Shown here in pieces: positions 2,193-30,954 of a DNA stretch of 44,161 bases. How positions within the stretch are numbered: position 1 is the first letter of the stretch; each line of letters starts with the position of its first letter. Origin of the DNA: a virus. Its lineage: Duplodnaviria; Caudoviricetes. The stretch covers positions 1 through 44,161 of the IMG/VR virus record IMGVR_UViG_3300037783_000006. One strand, 5' to 3'. The notes under the pieces are model-generated. The model worked only from the letters and a program-made list of their open reading frames with translations, made no database searches and had not been told where the DNA came from. The translations under genes and the position numbers were made by a program.

Positions 2193-2813
2193 TTACCAAC
2201 CTACGCCTTTGTCCTCTCGCCTGTGTACGTGTCCAATGGTTGAAGTGAAACCGATATGGTTGATTAAACTCGGCAAATAAAATTTCTGTTTCAACCCCAT
2301 TCTGTGTATCGTTTCGGGAACAGCATGGTCTATCTGTTGGTTCTTTGCGTAGTTGTCTCTGTGGTTAATAAAAAAAGGATGTTCAAGCACTTTTAAAGCC
2401 AATTCACGCCTAAAGATATATCCACCGCCCCATGTCTTGTCCCAACCGCCTTGAACCTCGTTAAATCCTTGTTTCCATTTGTATCTTCTAGCAACGCCTT
2501 GCGGAACAAAACAAGCAACGTATCCTGTTTGGCTGTCAAACCCTTTTAACGCTGTTTCTAGCCAATTATCTCTGAATATGATGTCGTCTGCCATTACCGT
2601 TACATAATCAGCGTCTGACTTGCACAAGTCCTCTAGCACCCGATAATAATGCCTAAAGCACCCAACGTGTTCACCTAAACTTTTAGTTGGTACTTTATAC
2701 GGCAATTTGAATCCGTCAGGATAAACGGTTACAGGATGTCCTATTGAACCTAATGTTTGAGGTAGCGTTTCTATTTGTCTCGGATACCAAGTTATGCCTA
2801 TATTTACGTTCAT
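2193..2813 (-). CDS. Putative glycosyltransferase (GT-A fold)
   Basis: IGITWYPR start, YVTVMADDIIF (xDD) motif, C-terminal PSLINHIG. Confidence 0.7.
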   Translation of the reverse strand: MNVNIGITWYPRQIETLPQTLGSIGHPVTVYPDGFKLPYKVPTKSLGEHVGCFRHYYRVLEDLCKSDADYVTVMADDIIFRDNWLETALKGFDSQTGYVACFVPQGVARRYKWKQGFNEVQGGWDKTWGGGYIFRRELALKVLEHPFFINHRDNYAKNQQIDHAVPETIHRMGLKQKFYLPSLINHIGFTSTIGHVHRREDKGVGW

Positions 2814-2825
2814 GGAATCCGTTAA

Positions 2826-3338
2826 TTAAGTTCTCGGCTTTGCTGGATTCCCGTAAACAATAGAATCTTTAGCAACATCTTTGACCACTACTGAACCCAA
2901 ACCAATCAGCGCATTAGACCCTATTTTAAGACGGTTTCTAAGCGTTGCCCCTAGTTTGACCTTTACACCGTTTTCGATAACGCAATAGCCGCCTATGATT
3001 ACGCCTGTGCATATCTCGCAGTTATCCAATATCTTCACATCATGCCCAACGTGTGAATGAGCCATTATGATATTATTGTTTCCGATGTAGGTAGTTCTGA
3101 AATCGTAAGGACGTTGGATTGTTACGTGTTCTGAGATTACGTTATTGTTTCCGATTGAAACAGTTCCCTTGAAGTCTTTTTGATTCACACCTCGTATCTC
3201 ACCGTTTGAACCGATTACAGTGTATGCGCCTATCCAATTACCCGTGCCTAACTTCACATTCTTGTGGATGATAGCCGTTCGGTGAATATAATTACCGTCA
3301 ATATTGATGAAATCTATATTGTACAGCTTAGACATCAA
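2826..3338 (-). CDS. Hexapeptide-repeat (left-handed beta-helix) acyl/acetyltransferase, LpxA/NeuD/PglD-like
   Basis: Repeated [LIV]-G-x4 hexapeptides, HSHVGHD, C-terminal GSVVVKDV...YGNPAKP. Confidence 0.9.
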   Translation of the reverse strand: MMSKLYNIDFINIDGNYIHRTAIIHKNVKLGTGNWIGAYTVIGSNGEIRGVNQKDFKGTVSIGNNNVISEHVTIQRPYDFRTTYIGNNNIIMAHSHVGHDVKILDNCEICTGVIIGGYCVIENGVKVKLGATLRNRLKIGSNALIGLGSVVVKDVAKDSIVYGNPAKPRT

Positions 3339-12486: not shown

Positions 12487-13823
12487 TCAAATTCTCAAAG
12501 TCTGATTCATTTCTATCCAATCTTTAACGGCTTTGTGATTGACGGCATACCTTACCGCATCCATGAAGTCAGCCCTTTCATGTATGTTTTTTCTATTCTC
12601 TTTGACCAATTTGCCCTCACCGTCTGCCTCAACAAATCGAAGGTCACGTATAGTGTTCTCACACTTTGGCGAAATCTTGAAATCAGGATGATGGTACAAC
12701 ACATAGTTCAAATCATTCCTAGATTGCTTATGCGGTGGGTTAGGCGTTGTCTGAACGTTTCGCATTGGTATCTTTAGTTCCCTTGCCAGTTGTTCATAAT
12801 AAGACCCGTTAGAAAGCGTCCTAGCGTTTCCTGAGTAATCACCTGTTATGACCATGTTGTGCAACCACGGATAGAACTTCCACTCAATCCTCTCAGAAGC
12901 CTCTACTATGCTACCTTCGTCTATTGTCTCTTCGTCTAAGATGTGAAAGTGAAACCCGTCTTTGTCTTGGTATGCTTGGTAATAGATGAACCCAAACGGT
13001 TCAACGTTGAAGTCCATACTAACGTATAGCGTCTCTAATTCGTTGATGTAAACTTCTTGGATAAACTTGTCGTCCCAATTGGTAGCGAACCTGTTATTGA
13101 CCTCTATTACCTCCCAATCGCCCTCAACGAATCTTTGGTAATCGGTCGGCATCATATTATCCTTTAGGCTTTTCAGATAGCTTTTAGGAATGAAAGGGTT
13201 GTCGGTTATCTTTGCCTGTATGTACGCCCACTTTTTAGGCAATGTGTCGTTTTTCCATCTATCGTAAAACTTAGCTTTAACCCAATTATGTGTTGGGTTA
13301 CAAGTAGCCAATATCACACTTGGAACATCTCCAGCCTTTAACCATGTACCTGACCTTTCTATCATCTTGTAGAAAGTAGCTTCTTGCAGTTCGTTTATTT
13401 CCTCAGCACCTGCACCGTTGATTTCAAGACCTCTAAAGCGGTTCAGCTCCTTGTCTTGGTCGAATGATTCAGCCATGAATATTATCTGGCTATCATTGCG
13501 GAACGTTACCGTGTACGTATCTCTGTTGAATTCTTTAACGAACTTATCCAGTCCGTCTGATAGTAGTGCTGAAAACGATACTAGAGTAGTTCGTTTAAGT
13601 GTTGGCAATGATTCACGGACAATTACCCACCTTGACTTCGGGTAGGTAGAAGCTAAATAGCAGAAAGTAGTTAGTAGCCAAAATGTTTTACCGCCTCGAT
13701 AACTTGCCCCCTCCTCCTAAGATTTGGGGGCTAAAACCGAATAGCCCCACCGTAGAGAATTACATCTTTCTCTCCCGATGTGGCTAATTCAAATGCTTCA
13801 CTTTGTTTTTTACTTAGTTCCAT
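12487..13823 (-). CDS. terL: Terminase large subunit, interrupted by a 41-nt insert (13696-13736); reconstructed 431 aa
   Basis: 5' part MELSKKQSEAF...VILYGGAIR (13823-13737) plus 3' part GGKTFWLL...IVRESLPTLKRTT (from 13695) rebuild Walker A. Also RFRGLEING..EEINE (Walker B), LATCNP, SMDFN nuclease motif and DFMDAVRY. Confidence 0.92.
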
Positions 13824-14067
13824 TCAGCTTTAAGATAAACGGTTCATTGTCCATTGTGATTTCTTGTTTCTGAGTTGGAAGACCCCAATCGTAAGACATC
13901 AATAGTTTAGCGGCTGCAAGTTTATCTGAATCCTTTTCGCCTGTTCTCATAATGTTAACAACAGTCTGTATTGTCTCGTCACGATATGGTGAAAGAATGT
14001 CTCGAAGTCTTTGTTCGTCTGCTTTCTTTTTCCGACCTGCATTTGGTCTTTTTCCGCCTCTTGGCAT
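13810..14067 (-). CDS. terS: Terminase small subunit
   Basis: MPRGGKRPNAGRK start, AAAKLLMSYDWGLP; overlaps the terL start; TAGTTTTG at 14105-14112. Confidence 0.8.
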   Translation of the reverse strand: MPRGGKRPNAGRKKKADEQRLRDILSPYRDETIQTVVNIMRTGEKDSDKLAAAKLLMSYDWGLPTQKQEITMDNEPFILKLNGTK

Positions 14068-14124: not shown

Positions 14125-14394
14125 TCAAGGTAGTTTAATCTTACCAAAGAATGGTTTTTTGCTAACTGACTTTTTACCCTTGCAAGACCACAACGCCCTA
14201 GCGAAATAGTTAGCAGAATTGCGTTTAGACTTTATCCCTGCGCTTCTGGCACAATAACTATCGCCTCTTGGTGTATTTGGTTTAATAGTGTAACCTGACG
14301 CGCCAAAATGAACGCATTTATCGTTTTTACAGGCTTTGTACTTTTTACCCTTTCTAGAGCTTCTTGATATTTCAAACCCGTTGTATTTAGCCAT
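14125..14394 (-). CDS. Small highly basic phage protein (VHFGASGY..SYCARS..SANYFAR..W); start revised to ATG 14394
   Basis: The longer track ORF runs through a terminator and a promoter; TATATTTG at 14399-14406 lies just before ATG 14394. Confidence 0.75.
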   Translation of the reverse strand: MAKYNGFEISRSSRKGKKYKACKNDKCVHFGASGYTIKPNTPRGDSYCARSAGIKSKRNSANYFARALWSCKGKKSVSKKPFFGKIKLP

Positions 14395-17086: not shown

Positions 17087-17512
17087 TTATTCACACTTAG
17101 CCTTAAAACTATTATGAATCTTCATAGTTTGATATTCGTTAGTTTCTATGAGTTGTCGAATCATTTTAATAGAATGAAGAACAGTTGAATGGTCGCGATT
17201 GAAAACTTTACCAATTTCTTCAAGTGTATATGCTTTCGTGTATAGCTGGTCGTAAATCTGATACATAGCGTACTGCCTAGCCAAAGTCACGGGTCTTTTC
17301 CTAGAATTTGATTTAAGTTCTGCGAATGGTATTCCTGTTGATTCGTAGACTTTTTCAATTATGTCTTTTATGTCTTTTTCTAAGTGCTTCGTGTAGTTCT
17401 CTCCCTTGACTATCTCTACTAATTCCGTGACATCTTCGCCAAAGTATCCTGAGTATAATTCTAGTATATCTATCAGTTTAGCTTGTTTATTTTCCGTCAG
17501 TCTTATTGTCAT
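17087..17512 (-). CDS. DnaA C-terminal (domain IV)-like HTH DNA-binding protein
   Basis: SRKRPVTLARQYAMY...TLEEIGKVFNRDHSTVLHSI matches the DnaA domain IV signature; no AAA+ domain. Confidence 0.9.
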   Translation of the reverse strand: MTIRLTENKQAKLIDILELYSGYFGEDVTELVEIVKGENYTKHLEKDIKDIIEKVYESTGIPFAELKSNSRKRPVTLARQYAMYQIYDQLYTKAYTLEEIGKVFNRDHSTVLHSIKMIRQLIETNEYQTMKIHNSFKAKCE

Positions 17513-20325: not shown

Positions 20326-21327
20326 TTAAAACAACGTGTGCTGTTTTACCTTTTGCTTGAACCTTTTCTCAGCTTCTTTTAAGTTCAAAACCGCCTGTTT
20401 GTAATAGCTATCCTTTAGCTCTATTCCTATTGCTTTACGACCCATTGAAACAGGGCTGTAAACCTCAGAACCAACACCCATAAAAGGAGTTAATACTACC
20501 TCATCTGGATTTGAATACAATTCAACCAATCGGTCAATTACATCCAATTGCAACGGGTGTACGTGCTTTTCATCATCTTCTTCTTTTGAATCTCTGAATG
20601 GTAGAACATTTCTATTTCTAATATCGTCCCAAACGCTGGAAGCGTAACGTTGCCAAATAATATGCGCCTTCTTGTTTGTTTTGTGGTCTTTCCAATCTTT
20701 GTATTTAATACAAATGTCATTCCAACTGCCGTACTTTTTTTCCATTTCAGGAAGCATTGGCGTTAAACCATAGTATTCAGTCATTCCTGTTTCGTGAGTA
20801 ACTGGGACTTTATTTTCTCCACCTTTTCTAAATATCAAAACGTAATCAGGAATCGCTGTAAAACATCTTGTTGAATCTTCAACTATGTTTTTATGCATTA
20901 AACTTTGAACCATTGTTCTCATTCTTACTTCAAGTGGTTCTTTCCAAATGGTTATACGGTTATTGTAAGTAAACCCGTACTTTAAATGGAGTTTGATTAT
21001 CTCGTGTGGAAAATCCCAAAGATTATGTTTTGTTGTTTGAGTTATCACATCTTGGCAATGTACTGCTGTAATTCTACCAGCTTTTGTTACCCTTGCAATT
21101 TCCGCTACCAGATACTCATATTGTTGTAAGAATTGTTCTTTTGTCTCACAGTTGCTGAAATCGTTTTCGCTTGAACTGTAATTGTAAAGCCCTGCAAATG
21201 GTGGAGAATAAACACTTAAGTCTATGCTTTCATCTTCTAGTGTTGGCATTACCAACATACAATCTGAGTTGTAGATAGCGTACCTGTCCGTTACTAGTTG
21301 GTCTTTTACTGTGTTTTCCATTTTCAT
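20326..21327 (-). CDS. Beta-class DNA methyltransferase (N4-C/N6-A)
   Basis: DLSVYSPPF catalytic motif precedes HVHPLQ and VLTPFMGVGS (SAM binding), GIELK. Confidence 0.93.
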   Translation of the reverse strand: MKMENTVKDQLVTDRYAIYNSDCMLVMPTLEDESIDLSVYSPPFAGLYNYSSSENDFSNCETKEQFLQQYEYLVAEIARVTKAGRITAVHCQDVITQTTKHNLWDFPHEIIKLHLKYGFTYNNRITIWKEPLEVRMRTMVQSLMHKNIVEDSTRCFTAIPDYVLIFRKGGENKVPVTHETGMTEYYGLTPMLPEMEKKYGSWNDICIKYKDWKDHKTNKKAHIIWQRYASSVWDDIRNRNVLPFRDSKEEDDEKHVHPLQLDVIDRLVELYSNPDEVVLTPFMGVGSEVYSPVSMGRKAIGIELKDSYYKQAVLNLKEAEKRFKQKVKQHTLF

Positions 21328-29917: not shown

Positions 29918-30238
29918 ATGGAAACTATTACATTATACCACGCCACAAACACACCGATAGAAGAAATAGGAATTGAAAAACAAACTATGTTTTTTACAGG
30001 TGATTATGATTTGGCTAAAAATTGGGGTGATGAACACTATGAAGATTATGATATTTTAGAAGTTGAAATACCTATTGAAGATATTTACGAATATGTGCCT
30101 GAGAGACCTGCATTTGCTATTACTGATTTTGAGCAATTAGAAGTTAAACCTGAGCTTATTACTGGTAAGTGTGTTCATTTTGAAGATTGTAGCGATGGTT
30201 ATATAGTTAAGAATATTAATGATTATGAATTAAGATAA
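29918..30238 (+). CDS. Hypothetical protein, possible ADP-ribosyltransferase-like fold
   Basis: LYHAT...FFT.D...A..WG pattern resembles H-type ART folds; inference only. Confidence 0.4.
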   Translation: METITLYHATNTPIEEIGIEKQTMFFTGDYDLAKNWGDEHYEDYDILEVEIPIEDIYEYVPERPAFAITDFEQLEVKPELITGKCVHFEDCSDGYIVKNINDYELR

Positions 30239-30954
30239 TGGGATTAAAAAACAAATATGTAGTTCACTCGATTGATAATTTTGTTGCAATTGAGTGGATT
30301 ACAAAAAAACATTATGCTAAACGTACACCTATAATGAAATATACGTTTGGTTTATTTGATTCTGATAAAAATATGCACGGGGTTTGTGTTTTTTCTCCTG
30401 CTCCATCTCGATTCTGGAACAATGGAGGTAAATTGTTTAACGAAAAACATAATATAGATGTTTATGAATTAAGCAGGTTGATAATGAATGATGGACACGA
30501 AAAAAATCTAACATCATTTTTTGTAAGTAGATGTTTGAAATTGATTCCAAAACCAAATGTTGTGGTAAGTTATGCCGATAAAAACCAACACCATAGCGGA
30601 TATATTTACCAAGCGACTAATTTTATTTATACTGGTGAAGCTGAACCAAAAAACAAAAGCTTTGATTTTGTAATATTTGGAAAAAAATACCACGGTAGAA
30701 ATATGAATATTGAATTTACAAGAAAACTACTCGGAAATCAATATAACGAAAACATACATTGGAAGGAAAATATAATAGCTGTTGGAGGTGAAATAATACC
30801 ACAATTACCAAAACACCGATATGTTTTTATAAATGCTAAAAACAAACAACAATTAATATCAGATATGATTTATGATTCTGTTGAATATCCTAAACAGAAA
30901 AATAAACGATATGATGCAAGTTTTGAACCAATACAACAAAAAACATTATTCTAA
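30238..30954 (+). CDS. mom: Mom-family adenine-modification enzyme (GNAT-like)
   Basis: KKHY, FGLF..GVCVF, YELSRL, SYAD..QHHSGYIYQATNFIYTG and KHRY motifs. Confidence 0.85.
   Translation: MGLKNKYVVHSIDNFVAIEWITKKHYAKRTPIMKYTFGLFDSDKNMHGVCVFSPAPSRFWNNGGKLFNEKHNIDVYELSRLIMNDGHEKNLTSFFVSRCLKLIPKPNVVVSYADKNQHHSGYIYQATNFIYTGEAEPKNKSFDFVIFGKKYHGRNMNIEFTRKLLGNQYNENIHWKENIIAVGGEIIPQLPKHRYVFINAKNKQQLISDMIYDSVEYPKQKNKRYDASFEPIQQKTLF

Follow-up and report, generated by a model that had tools for sequence, protein, structure and literature searches.

In the phage genome analysed here, the gene for the terminase large subunit (terL) is split inside its Walker A motif by a 41-nt insert, which is probably a heritable coding gap that is skipped by programmed translational bypass and carried by a homing cassette; the arrangement resembles the T4 gene 60/MobA system without being a member of it. 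Programmed bypass is, to our knowledge, established in very few systems. Gaps of 6, 10, 11, 39, 40, 41, 43 and 44 nt occur at the same site in related terL genes, so that the lengths are independent of reading frame, and the larger class of them is built around an RNA hairpin that covaries across the family.

The window (the whole stretch of DNA that was analysed) is a complete phage genome of 44,161 bp with direct terminal repeats, in which a genome-wide search returns a single TerL match. The gene lies on the minus strand. Its N part (13823-13734) runs for 30 codons and ends in GGAIR-F-stop, while its C part begins with GGKT at 13695 in another frame and ends at 12487 (12487..13695; 402 aa from GGKT in the ORF list, with matches to Terminase_3, 6N, 6C and phrog_979). 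The three frames are closed across the insert by TAG at 13733-31, TAG at 13719-17 and TAA at 13690-88, and the first in-frame start of the C part past the gap, a TTG at 13608, is already beyond the Walker A motif. Deletion of 41 nt (13736-13696) yields YGGAIRGGKT and a TerL of 431 aa, as it does in registers -1 to -4 (five neighbouring registers in all). The reading of the initial annotation, that 41 nt interrupt the Walker A motif of terL with all frames blocked, was confirmed by this frame analysis and by the intact motif of relatives: the best two, at 83-84% identity, have 431 aa with YGGAIRGGKT unbroken. The insert is also genuine. Contigs from the independent pond runs X2 and X3 bridge it without any difference, which rules out misassembly, and a contig from run X4 contains the whole insert and stops 17 nt past it; run X1 (depth 97) is perhaps the source of the window itself. 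No contig joined across the gap was found in the runs compared, in which contigs drop rare variants. The motif CCCC-gap-GGGG-gap-CG is found within the window at the terL locus only, as three overlapping matches against 0.44 expected.

The terminase small subunit gene (terS; 13810..14067, minus strand; phrog_2538, E 7.6e-7) overlaps the start of terL, with no nuclease gene between them. Directly upstream of terS, a gene at 14125-14394 (minus strand) encodes a small basic cysteine-containing protein (DUF5754), also present in the intact relative L103. Elsewhere, the window encodes a phage protein that strongly matches the C-terminal DNA-binding domain of DnaA (17087-17512, minus strand; PF08299, E 5e-20) beside a primase-helicase, a Mom-like DNA modification gene (29918-30954, plus strand), a methyltransferase-like gene (20326-21327, minus strand) and, at 2193-3338, glycosyltransferase-like and hexapeptide acyltransferase-like genes. 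No tRNA genes were found in the window, and no solved structures matched by sequence. The host phylum would be Bacteroidota, to judge from Shine-Dalgarno-like motifs before only 2/54 starts of the window genome and from the best cultured match, Flavobacterium phage 11b (31%); a search through 401 genomes from the same phylum as a Pedobacter record gave two distant intact TerLs (25-30%) and no host.

Comparison of homologs at this site, which the initial annotation had put forward as a check, recovered a family with comparable inserts and covarying structure. Its distinct terL alleles are 138 intact ones, 67 in which a hairpin insert measures 39-44 nt, 33 in which the gap is a six-base Arg-stop-Arg, a single allele for each of the gap lengths 10 and 11 nt, and a 4-nt case that is unexplained. 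Loci were fetched first through features downstream of the site and then through targeted patterns; the targeted scans inflate the share of gap alleles, and the untargeted scans alone gave 43 gap alleles, 117 intact alleles and the 4-nt case (161 distinct alleles). A scan of viral contigs with a single protein found nothing, and it was alignment and pattern scans that recovered the family. A loose hairpin scan returned mostly chance matches, and the hairpin pattern, run against 6/64 parts of a prokaryote genome collection, gave no gap-bearing terL of the family among the 120 loci listed. Rows matching genes other than terL were dropped (4/46 in the scan for Arg-x-Arg, and most of another targeted scan, including L753). 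Identity to the window spans 42 to 100% among the gap carriers, which fall into 16 clusters when grouped at 80%; because they are related, allele counts overstate independence and are not to be read as independent trials.

Several members of the collection stand apart. In L249, with a junction near position 401, a single terL carries a 4-nt excess at the Walker A site, with no stop and no nuclease; this is either an error or a further variant. Further breaks in terL occur in four hairpin loci, as deletions in L466, L482 and L493 and as a stop in L488; the first three are near-identical terL copies with a different internal deletion in each, and these deletions look like assembly artefacts. Two database proteins, P0039 and P0078, are called as starting within Walker A or immediately ahead of it (MAPSES, then RGGKT), and are probably more gap alleles that have been mis-annotated as truncated.

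The 45 distinct hairpin inserts share one order of parts: a codon, a leader of 5-6 nt, a stem of about ten pairs whose base is CCCC/GGGG, an A-rich spacer and a second codon. The targeted scan required the C and G runs, and every hairpin allele from the untargeted scans has both runs as well. In the window, the putative take-off codon is CGG (Arg29; 13737..13739), the last of codons 1-29 of the N part (13737..13823), whose translation matches intact N-termini; the C-run begins 6 nt past it, as in 42/45 inserts. The gap itself occupies 13696..13736 and ends in the putative landing codon, CGA (13696..13698), a choice based on sequence and on the match statistics of the family. The gap hairpin (13706..13731) is closed by GCCCCC/GGGGGC, the minimum-energy fold of the window insert and one found family-wide; the window keeps the base of the stem, with a degenerate upper stem and no GNRA cap. 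Across the family, the gap hairpin shows 79 double-sided covariation cells against 38 in shuffled alignments (0/500 shuffles reaching the observed value) and at most 35 in slid controls. GNRA loops in 31/45 inserts, G-U pairs at 59/426 stem pairs and better folding of the sense than of the antisense strand in 37/45 inserts together point to a structure formed in RNA. Its 3' arm doubles as a Shine-Dalgarno-like G-rich run with a putative function in landing (13707..13718 in the window, ending 8 nt before the landing codon); the distance from G-run to landing codon is 7-9 nt in 39/45 inserts. This run can pair with an anti-Shine-Dalgarno motif, but it doubles as the stem arm, and in the window genome such motifs precede only 2/54 starts. 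An alternative hairpin, GGGGCTA/TAGCCCC, surrounds the take-off codon and contains the stop, and the two mutually exclusive folds first noticed in the insert can indeed both form in the window, this one at -12.4 kcal/mol. The suggestion that this hairpin, which holds the stop and has CGG in the loop, provides the key signal was not supported, since it beats its null in only 7/35 alleles.

A second structure, a stem-loop of 54 nt, lies within the terL coding sequence upstream of the gap, with its 3' end at the take-off codon (13738..13791, minus strand, in the window). When the last 20 codons before the gap were compared with synonymous shuffles, z fell below -2 in 32/40 hairpin alleles and 6/6 six-base alleles (38/46 gap alleles in all) against 10/124 intact alleles, the window itself scoring -3.1. 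The 46 gap alleles show 85 double-sided changes in this stem-loop against 38 when shuffled (0/500). Of the six-base alleles recovered later, one more group has a strong stem-loop and another clade has none; the stem-loop is missing from L302, L443, L453, L484, L755, L677, L694, L698-L700, L722 and L738, which are one clade and some six-base alleles. The 60 nt that follow the landing codon were no more structured than expected, and a downstream barrier was rejected for want of any structural signal 3' of the landing site.

The gap is associated with a nuclease gene. Among loci with at least 390 nt of upstream sequence, terL is directly preceded by an HNH nuclease gene in 25/67 gap alleles and in 1/117 intact alleles; in the untargeted scans only, the counts are 15/43 and 1/117 (Fisher p 4e-9, kinship ignored). 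HNH_3 was identified in 4/4 of the nucleases scanned and NUMOD4 in three. In L164, L098 and L142, the old terL start is identical to that of an intact sister for 86-90 nt, up to the Walker A codon for Ala or Ile, and is followed by the nuclease, a new terL start and then the gap; in pairs of a six-base allele and its intact sister, the two DNAs differ densely upstream, and the differences tail off within about 90 nt downstream. The old starts and the upstream-dense differences together indicate that the gap site is where the cassette inserts and that it carries an N-terminus of its own, and the N part of the window terL would, on the anatomy of those three loci, also be cassette-supplied. HNH_3 has no match in the window genome, and the window copy appears to be a nuclease-less derivative of the cassette; the gap likely arrived with an HNH homing-endonuclease cassette whose nuclease was later lost from this copy. 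An early suspicion that the insert was the remnant of a mobile element was therefore right in substance, whereas the third-frame GGGGK that had hinted at a duplication arises from the stem's G-run. A full NUMOD4-HNH gene lies upstream of one intact allele (L110, L111, L113), which has other synonymous codons at Walker A and may resist cutting by its sequence instead of by a gap.

The codons that bound the gap bear most directly on how it is removed. Between the take-off and landing codons of the 45 distinct hairpin inserts, position 1 is the same in 41, position 2 in 44 and position 3 in 16, and positions 1 and 2 both match in 40, so that the near-matched Arg codons noticed at the edges of the window gap (CGG/CGA) prove to be a regular feature; both flanking codons behave as codons that would be read by one tRNA. 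In L146, L453, L489 and L755, the 5' Arg has been lost and the hairpin lies one codon earlier, with Ile on both flanks and Arg as the resume codon, while the Arg/Ile assignment in L302, L443, L484 and L515 rests on the spacing rule. The six-base class was scanned for Arg-x-Arg with any middle codon and any Arg codons, and all 42 terL loci recovered (29 distinct) have a stop in the middle (35 TGA, 4 TAG and 3 TAA). Arg is encoded by CGN on both sides in 42/42 of these loci, against a use of AGR in 34/139 distinct intact alleles. That a stop is required in the six-base gaps is a signature at the level of translation. A recoded stop was rejected, given that the six-base terL genes themselves end in TGA in 19/24 cases and that all three stops occur in the gap.

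The long gaps are less uniform in this respect. A stop directly follows take-off in only 9/45 hairpin inserts and lies one codon later in 19/45, the latter being the position of the window TAG (13731..13733), which is preceded by a single sense codon, TTT. That codon makes up 2.9% of codons in the window (TGG, 1.4%), and TTA is the next codon in none of the 45 inserts and in none of the short gaps. Since stops after take-off are so few and the codons found there are not rare, the hairpin is the presumed trigger of the long form.

The reading of these gaps that survives best, after bypass, is excision of the gap at the mRNA level, either by a nuclease and a ligase of the host or by a trans-acting ribozyme, with the two hairpins as guides. 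Both structures are indeed at the RNA level, and the piece removed would end in G in 37/38 Arg-type inserts. Its strongest argument comes from the 5/45 hairpin inserts that have no two-base match, whose landing codon is TGA in L007, L020 and L108, CAA in L109 and AGA in L461 (the first four are close kin of the window, L461 is distant, and L020 lies in a complete genome with a single TerL): if the cut fell behind the CG of the first Arg codon, all five would regain Arg, whereas bypass must assume first-position wobble or a landing fixed by geometry. Excision, however, needs just one of the two flanking codon copies, and the matched codons accordingly favour bypass; neither the second, in-frame synonymous codon nor the switch to Ile on both sides nor the stop in 42/42 six-base loci would be predicted from it. 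No splice motif is common to the Arg and Ile types, Rfam introns and ribozymes are absent from the window and 12 loci, no RNA ligase is present among the scanned ORFs of the window, and the cassette has no room for a ribozyme. Group I and group II introns in particular were rejected, as gaps of 6-44 nt without an Rfam match hold no ribozyme core. Where the initial annotation treated bypass and RNA excision as equally live, the former has gained support and the latter, which we regard as improbable, now stands well behind. All readings besides these two, taken together, are also improbable.

Among them is the possibility that the gap is skipped before translation, by a rare precise deletion from the DNA or by a jump of RNA polymerase between short repeats at the base of the hairpin. 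The hairpin is flanked by short direct repeats, and two gap-free alleles, L078 and L079, keep a cassette-type N-terminus and the 5' stem-loop (terL codons 10-29; z about -3.6), which suggests precise loss of a six-base gap over time. The repeat is often only 2 nt and tracks codon wobble, however; no joined contig was seen in the runs compared, and neither the invariant stop nor the 5' stem-loop would be explained, which makes such skipping very improbable.

An equally slight probability attaches to readthrough or frameshifting, with a TerL that would work despite additional residues in its P-loop. Gaps of six bases and of 39 nt preserve the frame, and in 3/46 hairpin alleles no stop interrupts the resume frame within the insert, but every frame is blocked in the window and in 43/46 alleles, no sense codon stands in the middle of the 42 Arg-x-Arg loci, and no lengthened Walker A was found among the 120 listed proteins.

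Expression of the split gene is indicated by the evolution of its C part. Median dN/dS of that part, for pairs with at least 80% identity and dS within 0.05-1.5, is 0.040 in hairpin alleles (77 pairs), 0.048 in six-base alleles (111 pairs) and 0.038 in intact alleles (480 pairs); the gap alleles are under purifying selection, with dN/dS of about 0.04. Together with the single TerL of complete genomes, this low value means that the split terL must be expressed. In a tree of 119 C-part rows (C parts shorter than 330 aa left out), the gap state changes 27 times in a patchy spread, and five sets of identical proteins fall in more than one gap class. That gap alleles are defective and depend on co-infecting intact phages is scarcely credible: near-identical phages do include both gap and intact alleles, and four hairpin loci carry the further terL breaks described above, but dN/dS is the same as in intact alleles, one starred clade of 22 rows is gap-bearing throughout and both hairpins covary.

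Programmed bypass by way of a homing cassette can be set out as a series of steps, each of them conditional. The nuclease would cut a gap-free terL at Walker A, repair would bring the nuclease gene into the site together with a new terL start and the gap, and the gap would, by analogy, shield the site from being cut again. During translation, the peptidyl-tRNA-Arg would release CGG when the ribosome meets the gap hairpin, the upstream stem-loop would zip up behind the ribosome and push it forward, and the tRNA would re-pair at CGA, positioned by the G-run and the A-rich spacer, with decoding restarting at GGC. The 6-, 10- and 11-nt gaps would be hairpin-less versions, in which the trigger is a stop in the A site. 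A bolder form of this proposal, which we offer only tentatively and regard as rather less than an even prospect, is that one homing cassette has given rise to a graded series of hops, from in-frame stop hops of 6 nt through gaps of 10-11 nt to those of 39-44 nt, in which the long form would need neither a stop nor a hungry codon and would be pushed by the stem-loop across a GNRA hairpin, with a landing set mostly by geometry, even on UGA or CAA. If the graded series is real, it would represent a second, simpler mechanism of bypass on bacterial ribosomes, with a natural allelic series in which to dissect it.

No published report of nuclease-linked coding gaps in the Walker A motif of terL was found, in a search that was thin on subscription papers and did not extend to supplements; the 'bypass' of the BASEL preprint concerns O-antigen and is irrelevant to coding gaps. 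With about a hundred natural alleles that share one essential site yet vary in gap length, tRNA, trigger and structure, the minimal signals for bypass become testable, and the graded natural series, the switches from Arg to Ile and the mapped insertion point make bypass itself directly testable. The family also suggests a route by which homing endonucleases could enter a catalytic motif without an intron or intein. For annotation, the consequence is that gap-bearing terL genes are called as truncated (P0039, for example, starts inside such a site), and these make up 43/161 distinct alleles in the untargeted scans.

Among known systems, the 50-nt bypass of T4 gene 60 and MobA is the closest in design. 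In the portions of Manning and Atkins (10.1101/2022.08.31.505936) that were available, the homologues of that system are described as having a nuclease cassette that supplies a new N-terminus, take-off that shifts by one codon, wobble mismatches, loss of the nuclease, and a mini Shine-Dalgarno with an AU-rich spacer; that stems formed as the mRNA exits drive the ribosome forward is argued in 10.1101/2024.12.09.627546, likewise available in part. The terL gaps share with that system, as described there, a nuclease cassette in an essential gene that brings a new N-terminus and a gap, matched codons whose third base is free, take-off that can move by one codon, a G-rich run, which may serve as a mini Shine-Dalgarno, and an AU-rich spacer before landing, a 5' stem-loop and a nuclease that is often lost. 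They differ from it, on the same partial accounts, in the gene invaded (terL here, the topoisomerase II large subunit gene there), in the flanking codons (Arg or Ile here, Gly or Asp there) and in the nuclease (a NUMOD4-HNH protein of about 175 aa here, MobA of 269-279 aa there). The terL hairpin lies wholly inside the gap, whereas the T4 take-off codon lies within the 5' stem of the take-off stem-loop; even in the GGGGCTA/TAGCCCC hairpin of the window, the take-off codon sits in the loop, unlike that of gene 60. The long terL gaps usually lack a stop right after take-off (the six-base class has one, in 42/42 loci), there is no signal of a 3' barrier to forward slippage, and the gap can be as short as 6 nt. 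A blastn search with 231 nt in 50,697 phage records brought up nothing beyond chance-level matches, and no sequence likeness to the T4 cassette; with these differences, the terL gap family is not a member of the T4 gene 60/MobA family.

The terminases of Streptomyces phage Hau3 and of prophages provide a second comparison, as candidate, unproven cases of bypass with gaps of 10 and 7 nt (PMC10732093, in the text available). Both systems have short gaps (6, 10 and 11 nt here) in the terminase large subunit with conserved junctions, and both are candidates; the Hau3 case is described with a hungry UUA codon, a proposed regulatory role and 3/100 genes, whereas the terL family has stops or a hairpin, a link to a nuclease, about a hundred distinct alleles and no UUA. 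Stop hops, in which matched codons surround a stop and 9 nt are used for one residue, correspond to the six-base class. They are known from synthetic constructs, and of natural in-frame cases 'no occurrences are known' according to the available part of a 2016 review (PMC5009743); the six-base gaps, by contrast, are natural, lie in an essential gene and are often accompanied by a strong upstream stem-loop and a nuclease. The byps of Magnusiomyces mitochondria, finally, are mobile inserts of 27-55 nt that are removed by bypass (10.1101/2022.08.31.505936 and PMC5009743, each as far as available). Those inserts are mitochondrial, occupy many sites and have an unused codon as trigger, whereas the terL gaps occupy one site, are met by bacterial ribosomes and have common codons after take-off.
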